From contig DAOVER010000003.1 in NCBI GenBank assembly GCA_030668875.1, forward strand, positions 3,395-67,394: 64,000 nt of DNA, written 5' to 3'. The stretch is from Candidatus Heimdallarchaeota archaeon. GTDB taxonomy: Archaea; Asgardarchaeota; Heimdallarchaeia; Heimdallarchaeales; Heimdallarchaeaceae. The notes beneath the pieces were generated by a model. It saw nothing but the letters and a program-made list of their open reading frames with translations. It was not told where the DNA came from and did no database searches. The translations under genes were made by a program, and so were the position numbers. The stretch's first letter is position 1. Each line of letters begins with the position of its first letter. Below, in pieces: positions 2,245 to 58,658 of the stretch.

Positions 2245-2820
2245 TTATAAATAAAACGCATTTATCTCCTCAAGAAGCCCATATGTTTTGGCAACCGCTT
2301 CATGAACCTGTTCCTCGCTTTTCCCACCAGTACAAACTAAATTTCCAGATTGAAATAGAAGTAGAACATTCTTAGGTTTTTGTAAACGATAGATAAGTCC
2401 AGGGAACTGTTCTGGCTCATACATACTATGGTCTAGCCAAAGTGCGATCAGCTCAAGATTTAATCGTTTATGGTTGAAATTACCTGAAGCAACAATATTT
2501 TGGATAATGATTTCTGGTTCCTCTGTAATTACTACGCCCTTTCTTCTCAATATATCCGATATTTTTTTTACACCAATTTTTACATTTTCAGTAGATTTTG
2601 CTCCTGTCAGTACTAGTTTTCCTGAACTGAAAACTAGACTCGAAACTTTGGGTTTCTTAATCTTTAATATCACTCCTGGAAATTTATCTGGATAATAGCT
2701 TATGTCAACTGACTCATCATCTATTAGATTCTGATACGTTTCGACTAATTCAATAGATGTAAACAAGTCTATTGAAGCAACGATGTTTTGAATTGTTATA
2801 TTGAATTCGGGTTTTTTCAT
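2245..2820 (-). CDS. tbp: TATA-box binding protein (TBP). The track ORF runs to 2928, but the conserved TBP core starts at the MKKPEF Met.
   Basis: Two TBP repeats: IQNIVASIDL...LVFSSGKLVLTGAKS and IQNIVASGNF...LLFQSGNLVCTGGKSEE; close match to archaeal TBPs by motif recall. Confidence 0.9.
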   Translation of the reverse strand: MKKPEFNITIQNIVASIDLFTSIELVETYQNLIDDESVDISYYPDKFPGVILKIKKPKVSSLVFSSGKLVLTGAKSTENVKIGVKKISDILRRKGVVITEEPEIIIQNIVASGNFNHKRLNLELIALWLDHSMYEPEQFPGLIYRLQKPKNVLLLFQSGNLVCTGGKSEEQVHEAVAKTYGLLEEINAFYL

Positions 2821-3047
2821 TTTAAATTGTTTTCCTTGTCCCTTTATACTCATAAAGCAATTTTCACCTTGTGCATGTAAGTATTTTGATGTGTAATAAG
2901 AAATCTCACTTATCAATTGAAGCCACAAGATATCTTCAAATGAGGGCTTTTCTTGCTGTAGAAAAAAGTTTACAATAAGATAATTCAGTATCCATATTAA
3001 TAATGGATTCTGAGAAAAAACAATCTATGATGAATCCTTCTTCTCAA

Positions 3048-3734
3048 TTAGCTAATAATTTTCTCTGCCATTTCTTTATATTTTCCAGAATTAAGGGCAA
3101 AGTACAAAATTCGAAATACATAGAGGATTCTATCTGATTCTGTAAAGGTTACATCTCTAAATATCTCTTGAACCTCTTCTTCCCTTTCTTCAAATACTCG
3201 GAAGATTTCAGTTTCAGAATCAGCGTCGATTTTAGTCATGATTTCTGCTAATTTTTCTGGTTTTGGAGGTTTTATTCCTTTAGAAAGTGATAATAATTCA
3301 GATGCTTTTGACAAATGTTTCATGCAGATTTTACATCTCCAATTGTCATCTTCCAGATTTTTTAGATAAAAGATTTTAGCTGTTCTTGCATACAGGATTT
3401 CTGTTGCTGTTTTTCCTATTACTACCCTACGGCTTGCAGGTGCTACTAAACCCACTTTGGTTAACTCTTTAATATACCTGTATATTGATTTGTCGGATCG
3501 TTCGAGCTTAAGATTCTCAATTTGCTCCTTACTTAAACCTCGTTCTTTAGCTTTTTTCAATACAATTTTATTGTAGCTGTCTTCAATTTCCTTAACTGTC
3601 TTCTGTCCATCCCTTAGAACCCAGAAGATGGGTGCATAGCTCTCATCATAAAAGATTTTCACTAATTTGGGATCGCGTACAACTCTTACTTCCTCTTGTA
3701 CGAAGTCTTTATCTGGTATATCTGTGTAACCCAT
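3048..3734 (-). CDS. Winged-helix transcriptional regulator, tandem paralog A
   Basis: Shares SIYRYIKELTKVGLV, GKTATE and DDNWRCKIC regions with the downstream 3870..4559 ORF; HTH-like segment. Confidence 0.45.
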   Translation of the reverse strand: MGYTDIPDKDFVQEEVRVVRDPKLVKIFYDESYAPIFWVLRDGQKTVKEIEDSYNKIVLKKAKERGLSKEQIENLKLERSDKSIYRYIKELTKVGLVAPASRRVVIGKTATEILYARTAKIFYLKNLEDDNWRCKICMKHLSKASELLSLSKGIKPPKPEKLAEIMTKIDADSETEIFRVFEEREEEVQEIFRDVTFTESDRILYVFRILYFALNSGKYKEMAEKIIS

Positions 3735-3869: not shown

Positions 3870-4559
3870 TCATTTTTTAAGACACTTCATGAGACTTTCT
3901 TCTTTTGCTTCAGAATAGAGTGATGACACTATGCTGAGAACATATAATAGTTTCTTGCTCTCTTCAAAACCCCCTTCTGTGAGGATTTTTGAAACCTCTT
4001 CATATCTCTCATTCAGTGCATTGAAAACGTAATTATTTCCAGAATTCATTATATCAACAACTCGTTTGCTGAAGCAATTAAGATCAATTTCTTGAACATC
4101 CTCAACAATTTGTAGTATTCTAGCAGCTCTTTGAATGATAGTTTGCCCCTCACTTTCTCTCCACCACTTATCTTCTCCGCTCTTTGGTAATATGACTTTA
4201 GCCACACGACAATAAAGATTTTCTGTGACTGTCTTGCCTTCAACAAATCTTTGTCCACAATTAGCAACTATTCCCAAATCTGATAACTCCTTGATATAGC
4301 GATAAATGGTTTTTTCAGAACGTTTTAATTTTTTTTCAAACTCATCTTTCGGTATATCCAGCTTGATAGCTTTATTTCTAACAATATCATTATACTTATC
4401 TGTTATTTGTCTAACAGGCATTGGTCCTTCTCTGAGGGCCGATATTACTGGAATATATGCTGTGTCAGAAAATTTCTTAATCAGTTCTTTATCTTCTACT
4501 ACCCAAACTTCCTTTTGTTTAAAATTCTCGTCCATTATCTCCATTTTCTTTTTACCCAC
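3870..4559 (-). CDS. Winged-helix transcriptional regulator, tandem paralog B
   Basis: TIYRYIKELSDLGIV, GKTVTE and EDKWW regions; same domain order as 3048..3734. Confidence 0.45.
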   Translation of the reverse strand: MGKKKMEIMDENFKQKEVWVVEDKELIKKFSDTAYIPVISALREGPMPVRQITDKYNDIVRNKAIKLDIPKDEFEKKLKRSEKTIYRYIKELSDLGIVANCGQRFVEGKTVTENLYCRVAKVILPKSGEDKWWRESEGQTIIQRAARILQIVEDVQEIDLNCFSKRVVDIMNSGNNYVFNALNERYEEVSKILTEGGFEESKKLLYVLSIVSSLYSEAKEESLMKCLKK

Positions 4560-23093: not shown

Positions 23094-24776
23094 TTATTCA
23101 AATTCCATTCTAGAGGAAACTTCTTTTTCTTCTTCTTCTTCAGATTCAGTTTTTTCTGTTTCTGCTTCCTCTATTATCTCTTCGATTACTTTCTCTTTCA
23201 GTTCCTTCTTAGGTTCTTTAAGATCACGTTTAAGTTCAAATTTAATCTCTTCCTTGATTTCTTCCTTGATTTCTTCAAGAATCGTTTCTTTGAGCTCTTC
23301 CATGCTTTCTTCTGTTTTCAGTTCCTTAGAGACTTCTCTCTTAACTTCTCTCTTTGGTTCTTCCTTGATTTCTTTTTTAACTTCTTTTTTGATTTCCTCA
23401 ATAACTTCTTCTTTCACTTCTTCCTTGATTTCTTCAATATCAGTCATTTCTGTTTCCTTCTCTTCTTCTTCTTTTTCCAATAAATCTAAATCTTCAAGCT
23501 GTTTTTCAACTTTAGCGTCTATTTCTTTTTCTTTCTTTTTATCATCGGTTTTTTCTTCAGATATAACGTTTTCAGCTTGTTCCTTTTTCTCTTCTTCTGT
23601 CTCTTCCTTATGTCCAAGTATGTCTTGCTTAACTTCTTCTTTAATCTGTTCTTTTAACGATTCATCTATTGCTATCATTTCTTTTTCTTCAATTTCTTCT
23701 TCAATAATATCTTCTTTTGCAATATCTTCGTCTTCTTTTTCATCGGCAGATTCATCAGTTTTTTCTTTGTCAATTATTTCTTTCTTTGGTTCTTCTTTGC
23801 GTTTAGCAATAAGTATTGGAAAAGTAATCTCACGATCTTCCAATAATTCAATAAAATATGAGTATAAACTTGAATGTTTGGTCGGCATATATATGATTAA
23901 TATTCCAACATCTTTTCCAAATGATGTAATTTCATCTTTGAATACTTCCATTTTATTTGTTGTAATAAGAAGGTACTCAATGAATCTTGATGCTTCTTTA
24001 AATACTTCAGAATTAGCTCGGTCAAACCTATCTAAATCTTCTTTATTCTTTTTAACAAATTCTGCGAATTCTTCCTCACTCTTGTCTTCATGGTAATTCT
24101 GATCAATATTAACTAAACAGTGAATCTCGCCTTTCTTTAGACTTAATGAGAGAGCTTTTTCAGTAAGATAACTCAATTGTAAACTGTTACTTGCCATAAT
24201 ACATGTATTTTTCCAAAGTAATTCCACGTTGATTTTATCACTTTGAATCAAAAGAACTGGAATTTCTTTTACTTCTTCTAAAAGATATTCAAAAATATCT
24301 CCCATAACGGTGATTCTGGCTTCAGATTCAATATCTCCCTCTTCGACTTGTGTTATTCCGATGAAGGATGAAGGCACAATTATTAATTCATAATCTCCTT
24401 CAGTCAAAATTGCATCTATGATGCTTTTCAGCATTTCCACACTCTCAATAACCTGTCCTTTTATCTCAAATTCCTCACTACGCAGATGTTCGTAAGCAAA
24501 TGAAAGTGAATCTTCGTAACTTTCCTTTGATGTTTTTGATACAGTAGAGGTGTTTTCGGTGTAAAAACAGACTACATCGATTTTAGTGCCAAAATGATGG
24601 TTTAATTGTTCTGCTACTAAGACTGAAGTTCTGGATTTTGATGTTCCATCAATTAATACTAGAGCCTTTTTAACAGGATCTTGTTGAGGTCTAACAGAAG
24701 GAAGTAATTCTGTGAATTTTTGCAATGTCTTTTCTATTGCTGTCTTCTGTTTATCTCTATCTTTAATGCTCATCAC
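23094..24776 (-). CDS. Tandem universal-stress-protein (USP)-like domains with a roughly 230-aa Glu/Lys-rich low-complexity C-terminal tail
   Basis: KALVLIDGTSKSRTSVLVAEQL and a second alpha/beta repeat; the tail is EEIKEEVKEEVIEEIKKEVKKEIKEEPKREVK... Confidence 0.45.
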   Translation of the reverse strand: MMSIKDRDKQKTAIEKTLQKFTELLPSVRPQQDPVKKALVLIDGTSKSRTSVLVAEQLNHHFGTKIDVVCFYTENTSTVSKTSKESYEDSLSFAYEHLRSEEFEIKGQVIESVEMLKSIIDAILTEGDYELIIVPSSFIGITQVEEGDIESEARITVMGDIFEYLLEEVKEIPVLLIQSDKINVELLWKNTCIMASNSLQLSYLTEKALSLSLKKGEIHCLVNIDQNYHEDKSEEEFAEFVKKNKEDLDRFDRANSEVFKEASRFIEYLLITTNKMEVFKDEITSFGKDVGILIIYMPTKHSSLYSYFIELLEDREITFPILIAKRKEEPKKEIIDKEKTDESADEKEDEDIAKEDIIEEEIEEKEMIAIDESLKEQIKEEVKQDILGHKEETEEEKKEQAENVISEEKTDDKKKEKEIDAKVEKQLEDLDLLEKEEEEKETEMTDIEEIKEEVKEEVIEEIKKEVKKEIKEEPKREVKREVSKELKTEESMEELKETILEEIKEEIKEEIKFELKRDLKEPKKELKEKVIEEIIEEAETEKTESEEEEEKEVSSRMEFE

Positions 24777-25597: not shown

Positions 25598-26683
25598 GTG
25601 ATATTATTGCACAAAAAATTATGGATTCCAGGACCGACTGAGGTCAAAGATGATGTTCTTGAACAGCAATCCAAAAAATTATTCGGTCACAGAAGTAACG
25701 ACTTTACTATATTATATAATAGTGTGTTAGATCAATTGAGAGAGTTCTTCAAAACTGAACAACACATTACAGTAATAACAGCTTCTGGGACTTTGTTTAT
25801 GGATATCTCAGGAAGAAATTTGATTCGACCTGGTAAAAAAGCACTATGTATGGTGAATGGTTCTTTTTCTGATAGAATGTACAAAACACTTGTTAATTGT
25901 GGTGTTGAAGCTGAAAAAGTTGATATTGAATGGGGTAAAGCGATAAAACTTGAGCATATCAAAGAAAAATTAGATCAATCAGAATATGATGTTGTAACAG
26001 TTTGTCAAAACGAAACTTCTACTGGAGTAAAGTTGGATCTCAAAGCAATTGGAGATTTGCTTAAAAACTATCCTGATACATTGCTTGTTGTAGACGCAGT
26101 TTCATCTCTCGGAGGAGATTTAATTTTGCCAGATGAAATGAGTACAGATTTAATTTTCGCTTCTACCCAGAAATGCTTTGCACTTCCTCCAGGACTTGCA
26201 ATTGGAATAGTATCTCAAAAGGCACTAGACCGGACTAATGATGTTCCTAATAGAGGTTCTTATACAGATCTTAACAGTATATTTGCATACTTCGAAAAGA
26301 AGAAGCAAACTCCTTCCACACCAAATATCTCTTTGTTATTTGCTTTTGATTATAAATTAAAACAAATGCTAGAAGAAGGAGCAGAAAATATTAGTGCAAG
26401 GTTAACAGAACTTAGAGATTATACACACAAATGGGCCTTAGATCATGGTTTTGGTTTGTTCGCAGAAGAAGGATACAGCTCAGTAACTGTATCAACAATA
26501 GTAAACAAATTGGAAAAGGATGTTGGAGCTCTCAATAAAGCTTTAGGTGAGAAAGGTTTTGTTATAGCAAATGGTTATGGTAAACTAAAGAATCAAACAT
26601 TCAGAATTGGTCACATGGGTGATCATACCTTAGATGATTTGAAGGAGCTACTTGCTGCTATCGAAGAAATCTGGGAACTCTAA
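25598..26683 (+). CDS. Class V aminotransferase, probably the archaeal-type phosphoserine aminotransferase (next to serA)
   Basis: ETSTGV, DAVSSLGG and FASTQKCFALPPGLAIG (PLP-Lys region); ends 3 nt before the serA-like gene. Confidence 0.65.
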   Translation: MILLHKKLWIPGPTEVKDDVLEQQSKKLFGHRSNDFTILYNSVLDQLREFFKTEQHITVITASGTLFMDISGRNLIRPGKKALCMVNGSFSDRMYKTLVNCGVEAEKVDIEWGKAIKLEHIKEKLDQSEYDVVTVCQNETSTGVKLDLKAIGDLLKNYPDTLLVVDAVSSLGGDLILPDEMSTDLIFASTQKCFALPPGLAIGIVSQKALDRTNDVPNRGSYTDLNSIFAYFEKKKQTPSTPNISLLFAFDYKLKQMLEEGAENISARLTELRDYTHKWALDHGFGLFAEEGYSSVTVSTIVNKLEKDVGALNKALGEKGFVIANGYGKLKNQTFRIGHMGDHTLDDLKELLAAIEEIWEL

Positions 26684-26685
26684 AG

Positions 26686-27627
26686 GTGAAAGAAATGCCA
26701 AAAATTATACTAACAGATAAATTAAACGAAAAAGCAGTTGAGGTTTTAGAAGCAGCTGGTTTTGAAGTAAAAATTGCTTGGGACATTCCTAAGGATGAAC
26801 TTCCAAAAATTATTGGTGAATATGACGCAATTATTGTTAGATCTGCTACAAAGGTTAGGGGAGATTTATTTGATGAAGCAGTTAATCTCAAAGTGATTGG
26901 AAGAGCTGGTGTAGGTCTTGATAACATTGATATGGAAACAGCACTTGCACGAAACATCAAAGTTGTAAACACTCCTGCAGCTACAACCAACTCTGTTGCT
27001 GAATTAGCATTAACAATGATTCTATCCTCAACACGTGATATAGTTAAAGGTACTTGTGAAATCAAATCTGATCCAAGTAGTTTCAAAGCTCTGAAGAAAG
27101 AATTATTCTCCCGTGAAATTGACGGAAAAACTCTAGGGCTAATAGGAACTGGTAGAATTGGTACAAGTCTTGCAGTCAAATGCAAAGCTCTAGGTATGAA
27201 TGCGATCGGATATGATGCTTATGTTGCTGAGAATCCTGTTGTAGAAATGAAACCTACAATGGATGATGTCCTCAAAGAAGCAGATTATATTAGTCTCCAT
27301 CTTCCTCTAAATAAAGACACCAAACATATGATTGGAAAAGAAGCTATTTCTAAAATGAAAAGTACAGCTGTTTTAATTAACTGTGCTAGAGGTGGAATAG
27401 TTGATGAGATTGCAGCACATGAAGCATTAGAATCTGGGGTACTAGGTTACTACTGTACTGATGTTTTCGAAATTGAACCTCCAAGCATCGATAATCCTCT
27501 ACTTCATCACGAAAACATAATAATTAGCCCTCATATTGGTGCTCAAACAGCAGAAGGTAACATGAGAGCTAGCGTTCAAGCTGCTGAAAGAGTTATTGAC
27601 GCTTTTAAAGAACTTGAGGATCTCTAA
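26686..27627 (+). CDS. serA: D-3-phosphoglycerate dehydrogenase-like 2-hydroxyacid dehydrogenase
   Basis: GLIGTGRIGTSLA (NAD GxGxxG), VIGRAGVGLDNID, LINCARGGIVDE and SPHIGAQT; no ACT domain. Confidence 0.7.
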   Translation: MKEMPKIILTDKLNEKAVEVLEAAGFEVKIAWDIPKDELPKIIGEYDAIIVRSATKVRGDLFDEAVNLKVIGRAGVGLDNIDMETALARNIKVVNTPAATTNSVAELALTMILSSTRDIVKGTCEIKSDPSSFKALKKELFSREIDGKTLGLIGTGRIGTSLAVKCKALGMNAIGYDAYVAENPVVEMKPTMDDVLKEADYISLHLPLNKDTKHMIGKEAISKMKSTAVLINCARGGIVDEIAAHEALESGVLGYYCTDVFEIEPPSIDNPLLHHENIIISPHIGAQTAEGNMRASVQAAERVIDAFKELEDL

Positions 27628-27631
27628 TCCA

Positions 27632-27660
27632 AAGGAATAGTTTATTCCTTTTTTCTTTCT
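27632..27660 (+). terminator. Hairpin aaggaat-agttt-attcctt followed by a T-run, just downstream of serA
   Basis: Read directly from the sequence. Confidence 0.35.
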
Positions 27661-27737
27661 ATTTTATTATAATTGAAATCAAACTGATTAGAACATACAA
27701 GAAACCTTTAAGAGAAGTTTATTTTCCTATTTCCTAT

Positions 27738-28787
27738 ATGAAAATTGCTTTAGTAGGTTTAGGGGCTATCGGAGCTATTGTAGCAGCTGATATAGCAAAA
27801 AGTGGTCATCCTGTTTATATCCCTTGTAAATATCAAGAAACTTTGGACATAGTTAAAGAGCGAGGGATTAAAGTAACAGGTGTAAGTGGTGAATATTACG
27901 TAAAGGATAATCTCCATCCAGTTTTGGCAATTGAAGATTTACCTACTGATCTTGATCTTGTTTTTCTTGTTACAAAGCTAAATGATGTAGAAGATGCTAT
28001 GAAACGACTAGAAGATAAGCTGAGTACAAACTACACTGTTGTTACAATGACTAATGGTATGATTGAGGAGAAAATATGTCCTAAGATTGGAAGTGATCAT
28101 TTACTTGGATGTGTTACAAGTTTCGGAGCTACAAAATCTGGACATGCTGAAGCCATTAAAACGTCTTCAGGGGAGATGGTGATTGGACGATTAGATGGTC
28201 AGAAAAGAGAAGTTGATGATCAGATAGTAGAAATGTTGTCATCAACGGTTCCTACTACTTGGTCAGATAATGTGAAAAACGAAAAATTTTCCAAATTGCT
28301 TATTAACCTATCAGTAGCTTCTTTTGGAGTTATAAGTGGAATGACTCTAGGTGAAATGCTTCAAAGAAGAATGACAAGAATAGCTTTTCTTACTGTTATG
28401 ACTGAAGGAGCAAAAGTAGCAGATTTGAAAGGAATTGAACTTCAGAAACTAAATGGTTTGAATCTTAATTTCTTAGTACTAACGAAGAAGGAATTATATG
28501 GATTTTCGTTCAAACATTTCATGAAGCAGATAATCATAAAAATTATCAGATTAAAATACAAGGATTTGAAATCATCAAGTCTTCAATCAATTGAACGAGG
28601 AAAGAAAACAGAGATAGATTTTCTTAATGGATACTTAGTTGCTGAAGGAGAGAAGTATGGGGTTGAAACACCTTTGAACAAATATGTTCAAGAAACAATT
28701 CATGTGATTGAGCAAGGAAAGGAAAAACCATCTCTAGAAGGATTAGAACGTTTAGAAGAAAAAACAAAAGAAATTTGGGGACTTTGA
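27738..28787 (+). CDS. panE: 2-dehydropantoate 2-reductase (ketopantoate reductase, ApbA/PanE family)
   Basis: MKIALVGLGAIGAIVAADIA N-terminal Rossmann; C-terminal SSLQSIERGKKTEIDFLNGYLV matches the PanE signature. Confidence 0.7.
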   Translation: MKIALVGLGAIGAIVAADIAKSGHPVYIPCKYQETLDIVKERGIKVTGVSGEYYVKDNLHPVLAIEDLPTDLDLVFLVTKLNDVEDAMKRLEDKLSTNYTVVTMTNGMIEEKICPKIGSDHLLGCVTSFGATKSGHAEAIKTSSGEMVIGRLDGQKREVDDQIVEMLSSTVPTTWSDNVKNEKFSKLLINLSVASFGVISGMTLGEMLQRRMTRIAFLTVMTEGAKVADLKGIELQKLNGLNLNFLVLTKKELYGFSFKHFMKQIIIKIIRLKYKDLKSSSLQSIERGKKTEIDFLNGYLVAEGEKYGVETPLNKYVQETIHVIEQGKEKPSLEGLERLEEKTKEIWGL

Positions 28788-28799
28788 AGCTGATTTCGT

Positions 28800-30272
28800 T
28801 CATAAGCATCTATCTACAGCTGAAGAACCCTTTTCATCATATTCTACTTTCGTTACCCAGAGGTTTCTTTCATTGAAAAGTTTCAAAGAAGCAAGAATTG
28901 AACCCCCTATCCAACTTTTGATTAATCTGTTTCTATCAGCTTTAACCTTAATTTCTATATGATTTGGAAGTTTGCTTCTAATATCTGAATAGAATCTTTC
29001 CTTGAAACCTCTATATAATGTGCCTCCACCAATTAGAACAATATTTGATAAAACAACTTTAAGTAAATCTGAATCGCATTTCTGAGCAGATTCTATTACG
29101 GCATCAGTTAGATCTCCAAGTTCTCCTGTTACACTTAAAGGTTCATTTCGGAATAGTATTTCAGGTGCTTTATACAAAATTTCTTCATATTTTACGAAAT
29201 CGTTATTGATGATATTTGCAGACCTTATCTGTCTATCTGTTTTCTGCCAAATCTGTTTTTCTTTCTTTGGGTTTTCAGAAACATAGCACAATTCTTCAGT
29301 AGCATATCGAATGTTGCTATCTATGATACTTTTTTGATTTGGGGTGCTTTTAGAATGAGCGATATGTTTGTTAGTATAGTCTTTCATCAATCTAGTAACA
29401 TCATTTGCTCCTGTATCTCGAATACTAACACTGTGAGTAATTAACCAACCATCGTAAATGGGAAGGATTCTAGTTGCTGAAGCCCCAATATTTACGATTA
29501 ATCCTGTTACATTTCCATCAGCATAAAGAGACAATAACTCTTTTATCGCAAAATACATCTTGGAAACGTTAAATTGGTCAAAAAGAACTCTAGCAATTTT
29601 CCTTCTAATTACCTTTGTTTGGTCATAAACTCCAACATAATCAAGCGCTTCTTCCTCACGAAGAATATTTTTTGCTTTTTCAGGTAACGTAGAATTGTTT
29701 ATCACATCCTTTTTTCCTTTAAGGGAATCAACATATTTGTCCATTTGTGGTCTCTCAAGAATCAGTATTGCTATCTTCGAAGGGTCTACTTCCATTTTCT
29801 CGAAGATATGACTAAAGAAAATCTCAAGATGTTTAAGGTCTATTTTCTCTTCAATAATGTCTGTATCAAGATAAATAGAAACTTTTTTGATAATTTTCTT
29901 CTTTGCTTTAATATTTGAATGTTGAATAAATGTATCTCCTTCTGCAGAATAAAATATTGTAGATTCAAAGATGTACCTCGGTTGATTTTCTCCTGCGAAC
30001 CCTACTTTGGTGAAGCTTGATCCTAAGTCAATTACCATAATTGTTGGGTTCTTTATTTTTTCAACCAATTGGACATTCTCTTCTAGAATCTTTAGACCTC
30101 TCTGTAATTTCATAAGATCAGTATTTTTCAAGAACTTCGAACATTGTTCACAATAATAACCAATTGTGATCCACTTGCGTTGTTCTGTTCCCTTCCTTAT
30201 ATAGACTCTTTGCATAGCTTTTCCACAATGTTTTGGTCTGGTTTTTTGCAGTTTTTCTGGCACTTTTTCCAC
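28800..30272 (-). CDS. Actin-family protein close to eukaryotic actin, with a Cys/His-containing N-terminal extension and altered phosphate-2 residues
   Basis: [23 protein letters not shown] matches actin [43 protein letters not shown] matches [48 protein letters not shown] matches [29 protein letters not shown]. Confidence 0.8.
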   Translation of the reverse strand: [490 protein letters not shown]

Positions 30273-30321
30273 CTATATTGTATTTAACTAATTATCTGCA
30301 ATTATTAAAGATTATCAAGGG

Positions 30322-30472: not shown

Positions 30473-31756
30473 TTGATAAGAATGGTTGATATCAAACCCT
30501 TTCGAGCAATAAGGTATACAGAAAAGGCGGGAGCCATAGAAAAACTGATTGTTCAGCCTTATGATAAGATAGATGAAGAAATGCAAGAAGCATATTATGC
30601 TCAATCAGAGTATAATTACAGCAGATTAACTCTTCCAAGTGAAGAGAACAGATATGAAATATCACGTCAAAGATTAGTAAAATGGTTGGAAGAAGGTATT
30701 CTAAAACAAGATGAAGTTCCTGGAATATACGTCTATTACCAAAAATATGAACTCTTTGGTAAAGAATACATAAGAAAAGGGTTCATTGGAGCATTAAAAT
30801 TACATCCTTTTGATGAAAATATAGTTCTTCCTCACGAAAAAACTCACAAAGGACCCAAGATTGACCGTCTGAATATGTTGAAAACAACCAGACACACTCT
30901 AGAAACAGGATTTATTCTGTATTCTGATTCAGAGAAAAAAACTATCAATCTTTTCGATGAAATTGCCCAAGGGGAACCTTTAATCGATGCTAAAGATGAT
31001 CTTGGAGTTCAAAATAAAATATGGAAAATGACTGATTCAGCACAAATAAGAATAGTTCAAGATGTATTCAAAGAACAGCAGTTAGTTATAGCTGATGGCC
31101 ACCATAGGTATGAAACTGCTATAACCTATCGTGATATGAGAAGAAAAGATGCTGGAGCTTTAAGAGATTATGATACCTTTGAATACCGTATGACATATCT
31201 AGTTCCCGTTGAAGATGAAGGTTTGATAATTTTAGCAACTCATCGTTGTTTGGCTAAAGAATCTGTCTCTGAAGAAAAAATGAGTGAACTTAAGCTTTTC
31301 TTCCATATGAATGAGATTATGAGATCTGAAATTCCCCAATTCTTAGAAGATAATAGAGATAAACGCGCTTTTGTTATGTATCAAGATAGAAGAGCAATCT
31401 CTATGATTATGAAGGATCCTTCTGCAATCAACAGATATGTGAGTGATGCCAGTGATGACTTCAAGACTCTAGATGTTGTTATCTTGCGAGATATGATTTT
31501 CCATGGTATTATGGGGCTTAAAGAACTCCACATTGATGATGATATTTTCTATGAGAGATGGTGGAATGAAGCCGTTGAAGAGGTAGACGCTGGAAAATAC
31601 AAGGTTGCTTTTATTCTAAACCCTACTAGTGCAGATGAAGTTCTCAAAGTTGCAAAGAACCATGAAAGAATGCCTCAAAAAGCAACAGATTTTTATCCAA
31701 AAATGATCAGTGGTTTTACAATGCTTAGTTTAGAAGATGGAGAAAAAATTCTCTAA
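30473..31756 (+). CDS. DUF1015/COG4198-like conserved protein
   Basis: IADGHHRYETA motif, recalled as characteristic of DUF1015. Confidence 0.35.
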   Translation: MIRMVDIKPFRAIRYTEKAGAIEKLIVQPYDKIDEEMQEAYYAQSEYNYSRLTLPSEENRYEISRQRLVKWLEEGILKQDEVPGIYVYYQKYELFGKEYIRKGFIGALKLHPFDENIVLPHEKTHKGPKIDRLNMLKTTRHTLETGFILYSDSEKKTINLFDEIAQGEPLIDAKDDLGVQNKIWKMTDSAQIRIVQDVFKEQQLVIADGHHRYETAITYRDMRRKDAGALRDYDTFEYRMTYLVPVEDEGLIILATHRCLAKESVSEEKMSELKLFFHMNEIMRSEIPQFLEDNRDKRAFVMYQDRRAISMIMKDPSAINRYVSDASDDFKTLDVVILRDMIFHGIMGLKELHIDDDIFYERWWNEAVEEVDAGKYKVAFILNPTSADEVLKVAKNHERMPQKATDFYPKMISGFTMLSLEDGEKIL

Positions 31757-31797: not shown

Positions 31798-32166
31798 TTA
31801 GAGATTAGCTCCACAATTTATGCAGAACTTTGTATCCATTTCATTCTTTCCACCACAATGGGAACAATACTTATTGTTTTGTGCTTGAGTAGTTGGTTGT
31901 TCTGTATTGAGTGGTTGGTAGTGAATTGGTTGTTGACCTCCACTGGGTTGGTGTCCTGTATGTGATATGATTGGAGTTTGTCTAGATCCTCGTCTTCTGC
32001 GTCTAATGATGTCAAATATTAGTATTATCGTAAATAAAACTCCAACCGCAAGCAGAGCTCCTCCAATTTCTGGGTCATAGAAAAGATAAATTATCCCAAA
32101 AATAATTAATGAAGGCGCACCAAAAATTATCCTTCGAAAGAAATAACGATTATGTCGACGATGCAT
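31798..32166 (-). CDS. Membrane protein with C-terminal zinc ribbon
   Basis: Two TM segments; C-terminal CSHCGGKNEMDTKFCINCGANL. Confidence 0.35.
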   Translation of the reverse strand: MHRRHNRYFFRRIIFGAPSLIIFGIIYLFYDPEIGGALLAVGVLFTIILIFDIIRRRRRGSRQTPIISHTGHQPSGGQQPIHYQPLNTEQPTTQAQNNKYCSHCGGKNEMDTKFCINCGANL

Positions 32167-32218: not shown

Positions 32219-32470
32219 TCATCTTCCAAATTCAGCTTCAATTAAGCCAATTAATTCTCCAATGGTATTAAATTCTTTGAAAATATTCTTTGGTAGTTTA
32301 ACACCGAATTCATCCATTATTTTGATTCTAAGAATCTTCAAATCATTCTTATCCAATCCTAAATCCTTTTCAAAATATGTGTTGATTGTAAGGTTTTTCT
32401 TTTTAGCATCAGTCATCTCTAAAAGAAGTTTTGTAAACCTTCTATATATACTTGAATACATTGTTTTCAC
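32219..32470 (-). CDS. Acyl-carrier-protein-like 4-helix protein with Lys at the phosphopantetheine Ser position
   Basis: DLGLDKNDLKILRIKIMDEFGV aligns with ACP [22 protein letters not shown]; the start is 2 nt after the stop of the LLM gene. Confidence 0.4.
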   Translation of the reverse strand: MKTMYSSIYRRFTKLLLEMTDAKKKNLTINTYFEKDLGLDKNDLKILRIKIMDEFGVKLPKNIFKEFNTIGELIGLIEAEFGR

Positions 32471-48558: not shown

Positions 48559-49626
48559 CCAAGTTTCATAACGTGCGTTTCCTATGATCCACCATCTTAC
48601 TCCTCACTAACACCACATGATCCAATATACATTACCTCTGATAGCAATTTCACAGATTATGGTTTTACCGGTTCAGGAGCGGAAGAAAATCCTTATCTTA
48701 TTGAGGAATATTATATAATAACAACAGATAACTATGGTATTCAGATTAAAGAGACAACAAAATATTTTGTTATTCGTAACTGCTATGTTGACGCAGGTTT
48801 CACGGGCATTTATATCACTGATGTAGCTGATGGATCAGCAACAATCATTAGCAATTCGTGCACAAACAACAGTAATGGTATCTATCTTTGGGATTCTAGT
48901 AATTCTATTGTTTCCAACAACACGTGCAACAACAACGACTATGGCATCGTTCTTGAGCATTCTGATAATTCTATTGTTTCAAACAACACGTGCAATTATA
49001 ACGACTGGGGCATTTATCTTGCAGGGTCAGGGAGTTTGACTGTTTCCAACAACACGTGCTACAACAACAAATGGAACGGCATTCTCCATTCCTCTTCTAG
49101 TAGCTCGATTATCATTAACAACATATGTAACAATAATGACTATGACGGCATTCGCCTTTCCTCTTCTGAAAGTTTGACTATCATTAACAACACGTGTAAC
49201 AACAATAATGTTTCTGGCATCTATTTTTTCTATTCTGATCTTTGTGTAGTTATTTACAATCTTATACAAGAAAATGAAGTCTATGGAGTCATCTTAAATC
49301 CAGATTCTGATAACAATATATTTCACCATAACACCTTTGTAGACAATAATCTAGGAGGAACTTCACAAGCGCATGATACGGGCAGTAACAATATTTGGCA
49401 TGACTCTGAAACACTTGAAGGCAACTATTGGTCAGATTGGTCAGGAACAGGAAGTTATTCTATTGATGGTTCTGCTGAAGCAATCGATCTCTATCCTCTA
49501 GATGAAGAAGGTAATCCTCCTGTTGTTCCTGAATATGACTCCCTTTCTTTATTTACTCTTCTAATACTGGTATTTCCTTTATTACTCACAATTGTTATCT
49601 ATCGAAAAAGAAAAAAAATAGCTTAA
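48559..49626 (+). pseudogene. 5'-truncated paralog of the beta-helix surface protein 55812..57851. The frame is open from a TGA at 48556-48558 but has no ATG, GTG or TTG before 49036.
   Basis: Hand translation gives ..DYGFTGSGAEENPYLIEEYYIITTDNYGIQIKETTKYFVIRNCYVDAGFTGIYITD.., matching GPTGYNFNGSGTTGDPYRIEDLTIDTE..YFVIQNCWIDAYDVGIYIQN in the intact paralog. Shared TLEGNYWS motif and C-terminal TM anchor. No signal peptide. The 5' end abuts the ncRNA candidate. Confidence 0.5.
48900..49100 (+). repeat. About 66-nt (22-aa) tandem repeats encoding NNTCNNN beta-helix coils
   Basis: attctattgtttccaacaacacgtgcaac recurs at about 48901, 48967 and 49035. Confidence 0.6.
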
Positions 49627-49788: not shown

Positions 49789-50340
49789 GTGACCAACTCT
49801 GAATTCATTTTCAAAATCACTCTTATTGGTGACGGTGCCGTAGGTAAAACTTCTATTCGTCATCGTTACATGGGTTATGGTTTCAAAGAGTCACATTTGA
49901 TGACTTTAGGTGCAGATTTCAGTGTGATTGATAAGGAATTTAGAGAAGGTGAAACTTGGACTTATCAGATCTGGGACATTGCCGGACAGAAAATATTCGA
50001 AGAAATCAGGTCTAGATTCTATAAAGGTAGTATGGGTGCATTGGTCGTTTTTGACGTGACTGATAAGCAAACACTCCGTAATTGTCTTTCTTGGGTTAAG
50101 GAACTTTATCGTTTTTCAGGTAGTGATGCAATACCTGTTGTTTTATTAGCTAACAAATCTGATTTACGAAATCGCAAAAGTGTTGATATGAAAAAGGCTC
50201 ATAAGTTTGTGAAGATTCTAAATGAAGGAACAGCTAGTTATGGTTTTACTAATCATGTTCTAGAAACAAGTGCAAAAACAGGACTTAACATTGAAACAGC
50301 TTTCAAGTTGCTAGGTGATGCAATCCGGGCAAGATTTTAA
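49789..50340 (+). CDS. Ras-superfamily small GTPase (Rab/Ras-like)
   Basis: G1 LIGDGAVGKTS, G2 Thr in LMTLGADF, G3 WDIAGQ, G4 NKSDL, G5 ETSAK. Confidence 0.8.
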   Translation: MTNSEFIFKITLIGDGAVGKTSIRHRYMGYGFKESHLMTLGADFSVIDKEFREGETWTYQIWDIAGQKIFEEIRSRFYKGSMGALVVFDVTDKQTLRNCLSWVKELYRFSGSDAIPVVLLANKSDLRNRKSVDMKKAHKFVKILNEGTASYGFTNHVLETSAKTGLNIETAFKLLGDAIRARF

Positions 50341-50407: not shown

Positions 50408-50971
50408 ATGGCTTACAAGATTCTTATACTTGGAGATTATGGTGTCGGAAAAACATCTCTTTACAATTACTACAAAGATAATGCTCCTGAAGCACAAGAA
50501 AAACCTGCTTTAAAGGTTAAATTACTTGAAATAAACAGAAGAATAGATGGAGAAGAAACTATCATTCATCTTTGTGATATCCCTGCTAAAGAATTATCTC
50601 CAATTAATAGACCCAAATTATATAAAAGAACTGTAGGAGCAATAATTTTGTTCGATATTAGTCGTCCAGATACTTTTAGACATGCACTATTTTGGATAGA
50701 AGAACTAATGAATTACAATGGTTTTGGTAAAGTTCCTATTGCTTTGCTAGGTAATAAAACCGATATAAGACATTCAAGTGAAAGAGTATTGAACCCCATT
50801 GATGCACAACAATTTATCTATAGATTAAACCGTTCCGCTAAAGCTTCAGGAACTAATATTGACAGCTCCTTCCATGAAATGTCAACAAAAGCAAAAGAAG
50901 CAAAAGGTTTGTTAGGTATTCTTGACCAGCTGATTAGAGCAATTATCAAACATAATGTTGAGAAGAAATAA
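50408..50971 (+). CDS. Divergent small GTPase (P-loop and NKxD present, switch II degenerate)
   Basis: ILGDYGVGKTSL, GNKTD and EMSTKA, but DxxGQ is replaced by LCDIPAKE. Confidence 0.55.
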   Translation: MAYKILILGDYGVGKTSLYNYYKDNAPEAQEKPALKVKLLEINRRIDGEETIIHLCDIPAKELSPINRPKLYKRTVGAIILFDISRPDTFRHALFWIEELMNYNGFGKVPIALLGNKTDIRHSSERVLNPIDAQQFIYRLNRSAKASGTNIDSSFHEMSTKAKEAKGLLGILDQLIRAIIKHNVEKK

Positions 50972-52826: not shown

Positions 52827-55715
52827 ATGAAGAAAGTGTCTATTATGCTAAAGAAGAAGAAAACAGAAATGGAATCTGAATTAGTACAAGAAGTAACGCC
52901 GTGGCACAGTTTTGAGACACAAGAAGTCTTTAAACAATTAGATACAAACGAAAAGGGTCTAAGCAACAATGAAGTTGTTACTAGACTTGAGAAGTTTGGA
53001 CCCAATATGATCACAATTTCAGAGCGTTTCAAAATACTAAAAATGATTGTGGGGCAGTTTACTAATTTCTTAGTAATGCTGCTTATTGTCGCAGGAACTA
53101 TCAGTCTAGTGCTAGGATTAATTGGAGCAGGGGAAGCGGGAACATCCGAAATAATTGATGCAATAGCGATTTTTACTATAGTTGTTATTAATGCGATAAT
53201 AGGATTCGTTCAAGATTATAGATCTAATCAAGCATTAGAGAAATTGAAAGAATATTTCGAACAAGATGTAATAGTAGTAAGGGAAGGGAAAGAAAAAGTT
53301 GTACACAGTAGTGATCTTGTTCCAGGAGATATAATTCGATTAGAGGTTGGAGAAAAAATACCGGCAGATTGTAGATTACTCGAGGCTAACAGCTTCAAAG
53401 TAGATGAAGCAGCATTAACAGGTGAATCATCTTCAGTAACAAAAAACCTTGATATAGTTCCAGTAGAAGCAAGAATTCATGATAGAAAGAACATGATTTA
53501 TTCAGGAACAACTTGTGTATATGGAAGAGGAGAAGCAGTTGTTGCAAATACAGGTATGAGAACCGAGATGGGGAGAATAGCTGAATTAACACAAGTGAAA
53601 GAGGAGCTAACCCCATTACAAGAAGCATTAGATAAACTAGGGAAAGTTTTAGGAATTATTATTCTAATACTCTGTGCACTAGTCATGGGAATTGATTGGT
53701 TGTGGTTAGGAGAAAGTTTTCTAGAAAGTTTTGAGACTGCAGTTGCTCTAGCAATTTCAGCAGTTCCAGAAGGATTACCAGCAGCTATTGTCATCACACT
53801 TGCAATAGGTGTTTCAAAGATGGCAAAGAAAAATACTATCGTCTCAAAATTACCAGCTGTTGAAACACTAGGCTCAGTAGATTATATCTGCAGTGATAAA
53901 ACAGGTACATTAACTCGTAATGAAATGACAGTTAAGGAAATATGGACGATTGATGGACTGTATGAAGTTGAAGGTTCAGGTTATCTGCTAGATGGAGATT
54001 TCATTAAAGATGGAAAGAAAGTTAATCCAATGGAAATACCAACGTTGAAAACAGTGCTACAAACAAGTTATCACTGTAATAATTCAGCTGTTATAAGAGA
54101 GGGCGACAGAATAAGCATCAAAGGAGACCCAACAGAAGCAGCTATGCTTGTAGCAGCAGAAAAAGGTGGATTTTCAGAAGAAATGTTGTTGAAAATGGAA
54201 CATGAAATATTCTTTGATTCAGATAGAAAAAGAATGACAACAATTCATGATGAAAAAGGAAAGAAATACGCTTTCATGAAAGGAAGTCCTCCAGTTGTTC
54301 TTACAAGATGTAATTCAGCAATGAAGAAAGGCAAAGAAAGCATGATGACTAAAGCTATAGAACAAGAAATAATTAAATCTAATCTTGCTCTTGCAGAAAA
54401 AGCACTAAGAGTATTAGCAGTTGCCTATAGAGAATTACCAAAAAATTATGATAAGACAAAAAACGATGAAATAGAAGATGATATGATATTTCTAGGTCTA
54501 GCAGGAATGATTGATCCACCAAGACCAGAAGTAAAAGATGCTATAGAAGAATGTAGAATGGCAGGAATTACTACTGTAATGATAACTGGTGATCAAGAAG
54601 CAACAGCAGTTGCAATCGCAAAGGAGGTTGGTCTTATAGAATCAGATAAGCATTTGGTAGTGAGCGGTGAAAAATTCTCTCTTATGACAAATGAAGAATT
54701 AATCGAAAAGATCGAGAATATAAGAGTTTACAGCAGGATGAGTCCAAAAGACAAATATCGCGTAGTAGAAATATTACAAGAAAAAGATCATGTTGTTGCA
54801 GTAACAGGAGATGGTGTCAATGATGCGCCAGCATTAAAGAAAGCAGATATCGGTGTAGCGATGGGAATAACTGGAACTGACGTTTCTAAAGAGGTTGCAG
54901 CTATGGTTATTACAGATGATGCATTCAATACCATTGTCGCAGCTGTAGAAGAAGGTCGTAATATCTTTGAGAACATGAAAAAATTCATTCGTTATCTCTT
55001 AAGTTGTAACTTCGATGAGATTTTTGCAGTCTTAATAATTTATGCAGCATTCCAAGAACTACCGTTCCTACCTCTACAGATACTTTTCTTAAACTTACTA
55101 ACTGATGCTCTGCCAGCTCTATCTTTGTCTTTTGATCCTTATGATCCTGAATTGATGAAGCGACCACCACGAGGCAAGAAGTCCTCATTTGTAATGGATA
55201 TGTACGCCTTCGCAAGTTTCGCTGGTGTTATAGCTCTTATCGGTTCCCTTGGTATTTTCCTTGTCGGATACCTAGGTATAGGTGACCGAGTTATTACTAA
55301 TTGGGCACATTCGAACAATCAATATTTAGGAGCAGAACAATTCCATGAAGCTAAAGTTGCTTATTCTCAAACACTAGCTTTTGTTGCTACTCTTTCCTTT
55401 GAATTGTGGTTTGTGTTTATAGCTCGAAACGACAATGCAACGTCTTTCCTCAAATCTAAACCTTTTAAGAACAAATACCTGATTGGCGCTGTTGTGCTTT
55501 CATGGATATTACTACTTGGCGTAGTTTATATACCACTATTCCAAGCAACGTTTACTGGATTTAAGGAAGTTCTCCCTTACTACCTAATTAGTTTGGAAGA
55601 TTGGGCTTATATTATAGGTTTCACTCTTGGTTTGTGTATCTTGTTTGAAATCTTTAGATATGCTCTGAGAACCGAACGTATGGCTGGTTTTGCCAAAATG
55701 GTTGGAATGCATTAA
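52827..55715 (+). CDS. P-type cation-transporting ATPase (type II, Ca2+/Mg2+-like)
   Basis: ICSDKTGTLT phosphorylation site, MITGDQEATA, VTGDGVNDAPALKKA, TGES in the actuator domain; 10 TM. Confidence 0.9.
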   Translation: MKKVSIMLKKKKTEMESELVQEVTPWHSFETQEVFKQLDTNEKGLSNNEVVTRLEKFGPNMITISERFKILKMIVGQFTNFLVMLLIVAGTISLVLGLIGAGEAGTSEIIDAIAIFTIVVINAIIGFVQDYRSNQALEKLKEYFEQDVIVVREGKEKVVHSSDLVPGDIIRLEVGEKIPADCRLLEANSFKVDEAALTGESSSVTKNLDIVPVEARIHDRKNMIYSGTTCVYGRGEAVVANTGMRTEMGRIAELTQVKEELTPLQEALDKLGKVLGIIILILCALVMGIDWLWLGESFLESFETAVALAISAVPEGLPAAIVITLAIGVSKMAKKNTIVSKLPAVETLGSVDYICSDKTGTLTRNEMTVKEIWTIDGLYEVEGSGYLLDGDFIKDGKKVNPMEIPTLKTVLQTSYHCNNSAVIREGDRISIKGDPTEAAMLVAAEKGGFSEEMLLKMEHEIFFDSDRKRMTTIHDEKGKKYAFMKGSPPVVLTRCNSAMKKGKESMMTKAIEQEIIKSNLALAEKALRVLAVAYRELPKNYDKTKNDEIEDDMIFLGLAGMIDPPRPEVKDAIEECRMAGITTVMITGDQEATAVAIAKEVGLIESDKHLVVSGEKFSLMTNEELIEKIENIRVYSRMSPKDKYRVVEILQEKDHVVAVTGDGVNDAPALKKADIGVAMGITGTDVSKEVAAMVITDDAFNTIVAAVEEGRNIFENMKKFIRYLLSCNFDEIFAVLIIYAAFQELPFLPLQILFLNLLTDALPALSLSFDPYDPELMKRPPRGKKSSFVMDMYAFASFAGVIALIGSLGIFLVGYLGIGDRVITNWAHSNNQYLGAEQFHEAKVAYSQTLAFVATLSFELWFVFIARNDNATSFLKSKPFKNKYLIGAVVLSWILLLGVVYIPLFQATFTGFKEVLPYYLISLEDWAYIIGFTLGLCILFEIFRYALRTERMAGFAKMVGMH

Positions 55716-58097: not shown

Positions 58098-58658
58098 CTA
58101 GATACCTAATCTCATGTAAATCTTACTTATCAAATTTTGAAAAGAATTATCTACATTTTGTCCTGATAGTGCTGATGTTTCTATGTAATCTACTCTTAAT
58201 CCTCCCCATTGGGATAAAGTTTCAGCATAAGCCATTGCTGATAGTTTGTCAACTTGCACCTCTGCTGGAGTAGTTGCTCTTAGATCTGATTTATTTCCTA
58301 CTATCATCATAGGAACAAGTTTGTGATTGTTGTATTTTATCAGTTCGTTTATCCAGTAATCAATGTTGGTAAACGTGTTTGGTCTGGTTATATCAAATAC
58401 GACTAATGCTCCATAAGTACCTGCATAATAAGCTCCTCGTACTTCTGAAAACCTTGGCTGTCCAGCTAAATCCCACAATTGTAAATTAATTACATAATCT
58501 TCAAAAGATACTTGTTTGACAGAAAAATCAGCTCCTATTGTCATCAAATAATTTTCTCTAAAACTTTTTCCTATAAAATTCCTTCTCAGACTTGTCTTAC
58601 CTACAGCTCCGTCACCAATCAAAACTACTTTAAATATTTTTCCAACATCGCCTGACAT
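58098..58658 (-). CDS. Ras-superfamily small GTPase (Rab-like)
   Basis: G1 LIGDGAVGKTSL, G2 Thr in LMTIGADF, G3 WDLAGQ, G4 GNKSDL, G5 ETSAL. Confidence 0.8.
   Translation of the reverse strand: MSGDVGKIFKVVLIGDGAVGKTSLRRNFIGKSFRENYLMTIGADFSVKQVSFEDYVINLQLWDLAGQPRFSEVRGAYYAGTYGALVVFDITRPNTFTNIDYWINELIKYNNHKLVPMMIVGNKSDLRATTPAEVQVDKLSAMAYAETLSQWGGLRVDYIETSALSGQNVDNSFQNLISKIYMRLGI

Follow-up and report, generated by a model that had tools for sequence, protein, structure and literature searches.

A fast-evolving actin-related protein of Heimdallarchaeota with a conserved, putative zinc-ribbon module at its N-terminus

In a 64,000-nucleotide stretch of contig DAOVER010000003.1 (the window hereafter), from Candidatus Heimdallarchaeota archaeon, assembly GCA_030668875.1, a gene on the minus strand codes for an actin-family protein that we call ZnARP. 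It is a protein with the four-subdomain actin fold that is distant in sequence from actin, and it carries at its N-terminus a basic module that is a portable, putative zinc ribbon. ZnARP is under purifying selection, strongest on this module, and belongs to a discrete family of ~39 proteins of ~487 amino acids. Its catalytic loop is degenerate, and the residues aligned to the barbed face of actin are kept far better than those of the pointed face. We tentatively read these features, at a little under an even chance, as those of a non-polymerising actin-related protein (Arp). A first-pass annotation of the window had already described the open reading frame (ORF) as a divergent, actin-like protein.

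ZnARP has the actin fold and is distant from actins in sequence

As called mechanically, the ORF runs on the minus strand from 28800 to 30272 and encodes 490 amino acids. Residue numbers given here follow this call (GTG at 30272) and not the 487-amino-acid protein, while actin positions are those of rabbit alpha-actin, whose sequence we checked to be identical to the PDB chains over residues 1-375. Selection is given as the ratio of non-synonymous to synonymous substitution rates (dN/dS). The features of the gene are the following:

30300 to 30310, minus strand: A/T-rich box CTTTAATAATT, 37-47 nucleotides upstream of the start, sequence read directly
30269 to 30273, minus strand: GGTGG, a Shine-Dalgarno-like motif 5 nucleotides upstream of the GTG at 30263
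28800 to 30263, minus strand: ZnARP gene (most likely extent), 487 amino acids plus stop, dN/dS 0.14-0.17 against its closest orthologues
30123 to 30239, minus strand: basic, putative zinc-ribbon module, residues 12-50, KPKHCGKxMxRxYIRKGTExRKWIxVGYYCxxCSK
30045 to 30122, minus strand: poorly conserved helical linker between the module and the actin core, residues 51-76
28803 to 30044, minus strand: actin-fold core, residues 77-490, from PF00022, AlphaFold2 and Foldseek
29991 to 30035, minus strand: phosphate-1 (P1) loop, residues 80-94, with D82 (=D11), G84 and K89 (=K18) kept
29844 to 29960, minus strand: shortened, divergent subdomain-2 region, residues 105-143, from the alignment to rabbit and Heimdall actins
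29631 to 29753, minus strand: 41-amino-acid family-specific insertion, residues ~174-214, between actin N111 and P112
29538 to 29543, minus strand: K244-E245, where actin Q137 is lost and the position of actin A138 is Glu in 38/39 members
29466 to 29507, minus strand: degenerate phosphate-2 (P2) loop, residues 256-269, with D154 replaced by N261, D157 by A264, G158 by S265 and H161 by R268
29007 to 29045, minus strand: retained adenosine-binding loop, residues 410-422, with G301/G302 (G415, G416) invariant and Y306 kept
28860 to 28913, minus strand: actin-like C-terminal barbed-face helix and cleft residues, residues 454-471

All the actin signature motifs quoted in the first-pass annotation are present in the ORF. 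In a Pfam search, residues 78-488 matched Actin (PF00022) over profile positions 6-407 of 410 with 202.6 bits (E=1.1e-59; cut-off 27). The sole other match was MreB_Mbl, at E=0.11, and the search gave no Hsp70 or sugar-kinase placement. It thus rejects an identity as Hsp70, sugar kinase or MreB, and the earlier statement that the protein is actin-like rather than MreB-like holds. Against NCBIfam, full-length ZnARP matched syringactin alone, within the actin core. The top sequence match in the PDB was the HC1 actin 9wc4 (2.6e-50), followed by Arp1 (~4e-48) and actins (~1e-45), with phmmer aligning just residues 77-109 and 223-488 of ZnARP. This HC1 actin is lokiactin from strain HC1, a cultured member of the Hodarchaeales (10.1101/2025.02.26.640444).

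Regarding the fold, an AlphaFold2 model built with 20 family sequences as input reached a predicted local distance difference test score (pLDDT) of 84.7 and a predicted template modelling (TM) score of 0.80. The top 50 Foldseek matches of this model were actins and Arp1, with target-normalised TM scores of 0.77-0.87 and E ~1e-30; for the actins, the TM scores were 0.81-0.87 at 26-29% identity. Sequence identity of ZnARP to any actin or Arp is just 27-33%, with 29% to rabbit actin and 31-33% to Heimdall actins. When scored on rabbit actin, the 375-amino-acid Heimdall actins gave 533 bits and the ZnARP family 150-185 bits, in accordance with the earlier proposal that the protein is not a canonical lokiactin. 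The claim that it closely matches eukaryotic actin proved right for the fold and for the C-terminal half, and overstated for the overall sequence (27-29% identity). ZnARP is the sole actin-family gene within the 64-kb window.

The N-terminal module is the most constrained part of the protein

The first-pass annotation had suggested Met54 as a possible real start. This was not borne out, as conservation in the protein peaks in the segment upstream of Met54, which lies in frame across homologues. We consider the second GTG, at 30263, the most likely start, because full-length database relatives have ~487 amino acids, an ATG occupies the equivalent position in the closest orthologous loci, and both GGTGG and the CTTTAATAATT box are kept upstream of it. 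The N-terminus of the relatives reads MPEKL or MSEKL, and two database proteins of 487 amino acids (P0001 and P0121) are 100% identical to ZnARP. The mechanical start, GTG 30272, sits within the GGTGG motif. At loci L001, L003 and L002 this motif is retained as ggtgg, agtgg or ggtag, and the box as (t)ctttaataatt or gatttaataatt. The box is a candidate archaeal TATA/B recognition element. A scan for promoters and terminators gave no enrichment, its consensus being that of sigma-70 and uninformative for an archaeon.

The module has the spacing H-C-x24-C-x2-C, and its putative ligands (H15, C16, C41 and C44) are invariant in 34/34 members having an N-terminus. Its mean pairwise identity is the highest of the protein (0.67, with 0.48 in the core and 0.29 in the linker) and its dN/dS the lowest (0.015-0.018, with 0.34-0.74 in the linker). 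Modelled alone, it folds as a three-stranded sheet (strands 18-24, 30-37 and 44-46; pLDDT 84-89), while the linker is modelled as a helix over residues 50-64 with pLDDT 50-66. The net charge of the module is +6 to +9. So, the ~75-amino-acid Cys/His extension described in the first pass is real and conserved in all 34 homologues with an N-terminus. Its suggested zinc binding gains sequence-level support, as a putative site, from the invariant His and three Cys and from the CxxC..CxxC relatives described below.

Searches with known families gave little. The best Pfam match of the module, up to E 10, was a GRF-like ribbon (E=0.46), and a phmmer search of the PDB gave no match below E=0.6. Its fold matches, weak and non-significant, were the nucleic-acid-associated zinc ribbons of TFIIS and ZPR1. 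We then ran an exhaustive HMMER search with a module profile over 1.84 billion representatives, and relatives beyond the ARP family came out as stand-alone small proteins of 37-96 amino acids plus tandem-module proteins. Most of these relatives have a canonical CxxC...CxxC arrangement, such as P0134 ('CVHCGTIMNRVYVR..WLPIGWACVVC'). The His-Cys variant is also found stand-alone, in P0144, P0146, P0148 and P0162 (76 aa). Besides, P0131/P0159, at locus L023 2601-3944, carry a near-identical module (PRHCGKAMSRLYIRKGTDRRKWIPVGYYCEICSKM) fused to an unrelated domain of ~380 amino acids; this C-terminal part of P0159, encoded on a short contig, gave no match in Pfam, NCBIfam or PDB. P0162 was the single protein retrieved when the module alignment was used in a word-indexed search, and NCBIfam gave no match for three of the module relatives (P0159, P0137 and P0132). 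No module was found in a scan of the viral contigs of IMG/VR, and no second copy elsewhere in the window. As for the surroundings of the relatives, P0138 (L021 6001-6471) adjoins a phage-type integrase, and P0146 (L024 2380-2496) lies within a run of small co-directional ORFs of unknown function, a mobile-element-like setting.

Taken together, the module relatives make up an uncharacterised family of putative zinc ribbons with the signature CxxC/HC..M.R.YIR..(R)KW.P.G[YW]YCxxC. The module is portable, since it occurs also stand-alone and fused to an unrelated domain. Pro13 replaces the first Cys in the ARP lineage, where the neighbouring His15, itself invariant, likely serves as the fourth ligand. 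We count small C4 zinc-ribbon proteins, both of the TFIIS C-terminal ribbon type and of the metagenomic CxxC..YIR..W.P.G[YW]YCxxC family, among the closest known systems to the module.

ZnARP defines a discrete Heimdallarchaeota family under purifying selection

A search of 5.8 billion proteins retrieved ~35 full-length relatives of 471-519 amino acids, with identities from 88% down to 41%. All the named ones come from metagenome-assembled genomes (MAGs) of 'Candidatus Heimdallarchaeota' or 'Heimdallarchaeaceae', where they are annotated merely as 'actin family protein'; their accessions begin with MHA, MCK, MCE, MCG or MEE. A sharp score gap delimits the family, with 409 bits for its lowest full-length member and ~200 bits for the next tier, the Heimdall actins of 375-378 amino acids, below which came eukaryotic Arp1 and actins. 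Scanning one genome per GTDB species, we located 20 ZnARP loci in ~17 assemblies, labelled Heimdallarchaeota or Promethearchaeati with the exception of one 'Thorarchaeota' MAG. In the latter (JBHLQZ01, 'Candidatus Thorarchaeota archaeon QM1B.68'; L017 and L019) ZnARP lies in Heimdall-type synteny with neighbours 53-78% identical, and the MAG is either mislabelled or a mixed bin.

Over the whole gene, dN/dS ranges from 0.14 to 0.21. ZnARP is 41-50% identical where its neighbours are 75-83% identical, and 72% where they are 91-99%. It is therefore functional, according to its dN/dS, yet evolves fast in all parts other than the zinc module.

The nucleotide site is degenerate in all family members

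To describe the core we relied on MAFFT alignments with canonical Heimdall actins and Arp1. The first-pass annotation had reported a Lys-rich insert of ~120 amino acids between P1 and the connect region, which turned out not to exist as such. Residues 105-222 of ZnARP correspond to actin 33-115 and accommodate three changes: the deletion of the DNase-I-binding loop (D-loop; ~11 amino acids), a change of +5 amino acids in subdomain 2, and a single insertion of 41 amino acids. The region of actin 33-70 has 33-34 amino acids in the family and 38-40 in the actins, and the Lys-rich run KAKKKIIKK (122-130) falls within this poorly conserved, subdomain-2-like region. The insertion is exactly 41 amino acids long in 32/32 full-length members, carries a conserved motif and is largely helical in the model (helices 188-192 and 198-206; pLDDT 72-92). 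In F-actin, the loop at 111/112, where it is placed, makes inter-strand contacts. Smaller indels amount to +5 near actin 205, +2 in the hydrophobic plug and +2 near 353.

We surveyed the nucleotide site in 39 family members. Among the retained residues are D11 (D82; 38/38), K18 (36/37), G156 (39/39) and E214 (36/36), as well as G13, T160, G301, G302 and Y306. The P2 loop keeps G263 and T267 alone, with both Asp and the second Gly lost in 39/39. The position of D154 is never Asp (N in 25 members, G in 7, S in 5, K in 1 and H in 1), that of D157 is A, S, N or others and never Asp, and that of G158 is never Gly and is often bulky. Q137 is replaced by G, K or E across the family, K213 and K336 are also replaced, and S14 and G15 of P1 are variable. 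Two residues are newly fixed, each in 38/39: a Glu at A138 (E245) and an Arg at H161 (R268). In actin, Q137, D154 and H161 position and activate the hydrolytic water. The earlier observation that DSGDG reads NIGAS (D154N, D157A) is thus correct and holds family-wide, and the loss is broader, reaching the water-positioning residues. An altered catalytic site is supported at the sequence level across the family.

Barbed-face residues are kept and pointed-face residues are not

We then compared identity between the ZnARP family and canonical Heimdall actins by class of F-actin contact. Overall identity was 0.33. The barbed face gave 0.57 in the cleft (143-148, 166-169, 345-355 and 375) and 0.42 in subdomain 3 (283-294 and 322-325). 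On the pointed face we obtained 0.03 in the D-loop, 0.04 at 61-65 and 0.15 at 200-205 plus 241-247, and lateral contacts gave 0.07-0.16. The aligned residues show a barbed face kept near that of canonical Heimdall actin, with pointed and lateral contacts deleted, replaced or interrupted by the insertion.

In order to calibrate these values, we used human ARP10, ARP2, ARP3 and BAF53A/Arp4 sequences verified against PDB chains. The ratio of barbed- to pointed-face identity is 4.5-5.9 in the ZnARP family, 1.2 and 1.8 in the polymerising Arp1 and Heimdall actin, respectively, and 1.0, 3.5, 3.6 and 2.8 in Arp2, Arp3, Arp4 and Arp10. For P0114, an ARP from a Promethearchaeota MAG, it is 1.5. Nucleotide-site identity to actin is 0.41 in ZnARP, 0.40 in Arp10, 0.50 in Arp4 and 0.63-0.87 in Arp1-3. 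Within the family, the plug region (0.54) and the insertion (0.43) are more conserved than the pointed-face region (0.11-0.27).

Similarity to known classes was measured by scoring actins, P0114 and Arp1, 2, 3, 4 and 10 as references with a hidden Markov model (HMM) of the family core. Canonical Asgard actins are the best-scoring relatives of ZnARP (~260 bits for Heimdall actins, with 9wc4 as the top PDB match), followed by rabbit actin (219), Arp1 (193-212), P0114 (192), Arp2 (154), Arp4 (124), Arp3 (120) and Arp10 (85). Canonical lokiactin has ~375 amino acids, ~55-60% identity to eukaryotic actin and an intact D-loop and DSGDG, and is present across Asgard classes. ZnARP shares with lokiactin, also named asgardactin 01 (the 375-378-amino-acid Heimdall actins and 9wc4), the fold, the barbed-face residues, the adenosine loop, the C-terminal helix and the lineage. 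Unlike it, ZnARP has 487 amino acids, is 31-33% identical, has lost the D-loop, carries the 41-amino-acid insertion at 111/112, has a degenerate DSGDG with Q137 and H161 replaced, has gained the ~75-amino-acid N-terminal region with its putative zinc ribbon, and is found just in Heimdallarchaeota, where lokiactin is found in all Asgard.

Among the eukaryotic classes, Arp10 and Arp3 resemble ZnARP in keeping the barbed face and not the pointed one, whereas Arp2 differs (ratio 1.0), and Arp10 also has a degenerate nucleotide site, a reduced subdomain 2 and a 'DLG' in P1. The zinc ribbon of ZnARP is absent from every eukaryotic Arp class examined here. The other Asgard ARPs (asgardactins 02-05) are likewise non-canonical actin paralogues with a patchy distribution (PMC9834061, PMC8850707), and P0114 differs from ZnARP in giving 407 bits to Heimdall actin and lacking the zinc module.

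ZnARP as a possible non-polymerising adaptor

The reading that we tentatively favour, with slightly less than even confidence, is that ZnARP is a non-polymerising Arp with impaired ATPase activity, whose barbed face would dock a partner and whose zinc ribbon would act as a tether. Judging from its sequence, it may still hold a nucleotide whose hydrolysis would be slow or absent, in the manner of Arp4, which binds ATP without turnover. It would build no F-actin-like filaments and would work as an adaptor, either monomeric or non-F-actin-like. Through the zinc ribbon, the complex would be tethered to a polyanionic or protein target, be it nucleic acid, an acidic membrane or a shared partner. In the most specific version, the ligand docked by the barbed face would be the D-loop and pointed end that a lokiactin subunit or filament exposes, and ZnARP would cap or seed lokiactin filaments there, the role played in eukaryotes by Arp2/3 and Arp10/11. 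We draw this version from the analogy with Arp2/3 and Arp10/11, which bind actin or Arp1 via their barbed faces, at pointed ends, and from the presence of canonical actins (P0047 and P0051, 'Heimdallarchaeaceae') in ZnARP's own lineage. Taken one step further, ZnARP might be a prokaryotic single-polypeptide filament-end factor, with its barbed face on the lokiactin pointed end and its zinc ribbon anchoring that end to DNA, to a membrane-associated partner or to a hub shared with a P0159-type protein, a possibility that we regard as unlikely.

Several observations weigh against our favoured reading. The lists of F-actin contact residues come from general knowledge of published filament structures and were not derived with a tool. 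Arp2, which polymerises no more than Arp3, has a ratio of 1.0, so that the ratio fails to separate end-binding Arps cleanly from polymerisers. The barbed-face residues overlap in part with the structural hinge, which is often conserved anyway, although the Arp1 and Arp2 controls argue that this effect is not universal. A homo-oligomer interface specific to the family could account for the conservation of the plug and the insertion, and the fixed E245/R268 pair could be an alternative catalytic site, hence an active ATPase. Finally, we found no gene accompanying ZnARP in both of its genomic contexts, where the conserved neighbours are metabolic.

Two other readings are the main rivals, each compatible with part of the evidence. 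One could argue that ZnARP is a scaffold for chromatin or nucleic acids like Arp4 and Arp8, in which the ribbon binds DNA or RNA, the barbed groove clamps a partner helix and the nucleotide is structural; we give this a low probability. The N-terminal extension of Arp8 binds DNA, conceptually like a basic N-terminal tether, and the HSA helix is bound by Arp4 and actin alike. Both Arp4 and Arp8 are non-polymerising and have an actin-like barbed face, and the ratio of the ZnARP family (4.5-5.9) is nearest those of Arp4 (3.6) and Arp3 (3.5). The P2 loop 'IGA(S/T)xT' also parallels the 'SGATHT' of BAF53A in its verified sequence (D157 to A and G158 to T/S in ZnARP; D157A and G158T in BAF53A). The charge of the module (+6 to +9), the nucleic-acid-associated ribbons TFIIS and ZPR1 among its fold matches, and the integrase or mobile-element-like settings of its stand-alone relatives, where small DNA-binding zinc ribbons are common, point in the same direction. 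However, those fold matches are not significant, and no Snf2/HSA-type or other nucleic-acid enzyme is linked to ZnARP in either genomic context. The family is nearer to actin and Arp1 than to Arp4, which scores 124 bits, has no support in the tree described below, has its insertions at other sites and keeps D154. The tether of ZnARP is, moreover, a discrete putative zinc ribbon and not a disordered basic tail as in nuclear Arps, and no HSA-type partner was identified.

It is quite unlikely, in our view, that ZnARP instead polymerises into a cytomotive filament of non-F-actin architecture, using the insertion and the remodelled pointed face as interfaces and the ribbon as an adaptor of its own that couples the filament to DNA or cargo in a segregation-type system. 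Filaments of crenactin, ParM and MamK do differ in architecture from actin. ZnARP has an intact ASKHA/actin fold that keeps D11, K18, E214 and the GG loop, the insertion (0.43) and plug (0.54) are conserved within the family, and the module is basic. The Glu fixed beside the Q137 position is reminiscent of the Glu that is catalytic in MreB, ParM and Hsp70. Nevertheless, the phosphate-cradling Gly and Ser of P1 and P2 vary among members, an unusual trait in a dynamic ATPase polymer; the pointed face is poorly conserved within the family (0.11-0.27), which speaks against a new longitudinal interface shared by its members; and ZnARP is a single chromosomal gene in a conserved metabolic neighbourhood, with no ParR-like partner.

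Relationship to eukaryotic Arps

In a neighbour-joining tree built from simple distances (200 replicates, one ARP10 sequence), the ZnARP family was monophyletic in 100% of the replicates, on a long stem. A split uniting ZnARP and ARP10, both of them long branches, appeared in 78%, and there was no support for grouping ZnARP with Heimdall actin (5%), Arp1 or Arp4. Since ARP10 has the lowest HMM score, the pairing is probably long-branch attraction. Asgardactins 04-05 are reported to group with ARP10 (PMC8850707). In view of this, ZnARP could be taken for the archaeal orthologue or sister of eukaryotic Arp10/Arp11, which caps the Arp1 filament of dynactin at its pointed end, and might correspond to asgardactin 04/05 (Da Cunha et al. 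2022); we find this reading very unlikely. Besides the 78% bootstrap and the published grouping, the two proteins have in common the 'DLG' variant of P1 (N12L) and a reduced subdomain 2, as read from the verified ACTR10 sequence, together with similarly low nucleotide-site identities (0.40-0.41). Yet ARP10 is the least similar of the references (85 bits, against 260 for Heimdall actin) and, reciprocally, scores ZnARP at 49 bits and actin at 95. With the two longest branches and one ARP10 sequence, long-branch attraction is to be expected. The P2 changes also differ, as ARP10 keeps D154 and has a Leu at 161. The accessions of ZnARP members differ from RLI71419, the Heimdall representative in the 2020 preprint, and near ZnARP we found no accessory-complex genes (ARPC or p62/p25/p27 analogues).

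The term 'Arp-like' used in the first pass is apt as a description of a divergent actin-related paralogue, and the HMM scores and the tree establish no orthology to a eukaryotic Arp class. ZnARP could have arisen by a lineage-specific duplication of lokiactin or from an older ARP lineage. The chance that it is a decaying or misannotated gene, that is, a pseudo-actin or an extension from a wrong start, is negligible: its degenerate catalytic motifs and its faster evolution than its neighbours could suggest so, but this is refuted by dN/dS values of 0.14-0.21 gene-wide and 0.015 on the extension, by an intact ORF with constant length and fixed indels across ~39 proteins, and by the conservation of the start and upstream motifs.

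Genomic context

The ZnARP gene is monocistronic, with a DUF1015 gene (30473-31756, plus strand) divergent from it on one side and a PanE/ApbA-like reductase gene convergent with it on the other. Beyond the reductase lie a SerA-like 2-hydroxyacid dehydrogenase and then a class-V aminotransferase, the block of three spanning 25598-28787 on the plus strand. This neighbourhood is conserved in ~15 Heimdall loci, with neighbours at 75-90% identity, far above ZnARP, and looks like a serine or pantoate-type metabolic cluster with the ARP embedded. At two loci (L009 and L010) ZnARP lies in a different context. A function drawn from the gene neighbourhood was rejected, as the neighbours are metabolic and the different context of these two loci leaves no universal partner.

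Other conserved genes of the region include a 560-amino-acid ORF (23094-24776, minus strand) with no Pfam match and 58-83% identity in 10 syntenic Heimdall loci, and an 83-amino-acid ORF (~32219-32470, minus strand) conserved in 14 syntenic loci. Beside the latter, a 122-amino-acid protein (31798-32166, minus strand) with a C-terminal zinc ribbon of the PF13240 type is conserved in 6 loci.

The first-pass annotation had taken the window for that of an Asgard-type archaeon. This agrees with the homologues and syntenic loci of Heimdallarchaeota type, the TATA-binding protein (TBP) and the three Ras-family GTPases, which are real (PF00071 matches). The latter lie at 49789-50340 (plus strand, 131 bits), 50408-50971 (plus strand, 71 bits) and 58098-58658 (minus strand, 158 bits). 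Such GTPases are typical of Asgard genomes. Two of them are in tandem and are flanked by two NosD/right-handed beta-helix proteins and a P-type cation ATPase (49036-49626, 55812-57851 and 52827-55715, all on the plus strand). Around the archaeal TBP gene (2245-2928, minus strand; two repeats matching PF00352 with 173 bits) lie three ORFs of ~228 amino acids without a Pfam match (3048-3734, 3870-4559 and 71-610). The G+C content of the window, ~33%, is likewise in keeping with an Asgard origin.

Significance of the ZnARP family

Asgard archaea have lokiactin plus profilin and gelsolin regulators, and ARPs figure in their phylogenies. We are not aware of a function assigned to any Asgard ARP, or of an account of the nucleation or anchoring of filament ends in these cells. 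That Asgard archaea have ARPs of unknown function had already been described (PMC9834061). In our literature search we found no report of an ARP with a zinc ribbon, and the combination of a putative zinc ribbon with the actin fold is, as far as the searched literature shows, an undescribed architecture. Should its function turn out to be trivial, the family would still document this architecture and an uncharacterised family of putative zinc ribbons.

The ZnARP family is useful in being well defined and conserved, with the sequence pattern of a non-polymerising Arp and a portable, constrained zinc-ribbon tether. It makes pointed-end capping or anchoring, or Arp4/8-like scaffolding, a concrete hypothesis that can be tested with recombinant proteins and in the reported Heimdallarchaeaceae enrichments. 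If orthology to Arp10/11 were true, it would document a pre-eukaryotic origin of that class. If ZnARP acted at filament ends, it would be an archaeal Arp serving as a pointed-end anchor, independent of or ancestral to Arp2/3 and Arp10/11, and would give Heimdallarchaeia a means to position actin filaments. The family also matters for two views of Arp-type specialisation, namely that it emerged several times within archaea or that it is older than eukaryotes.

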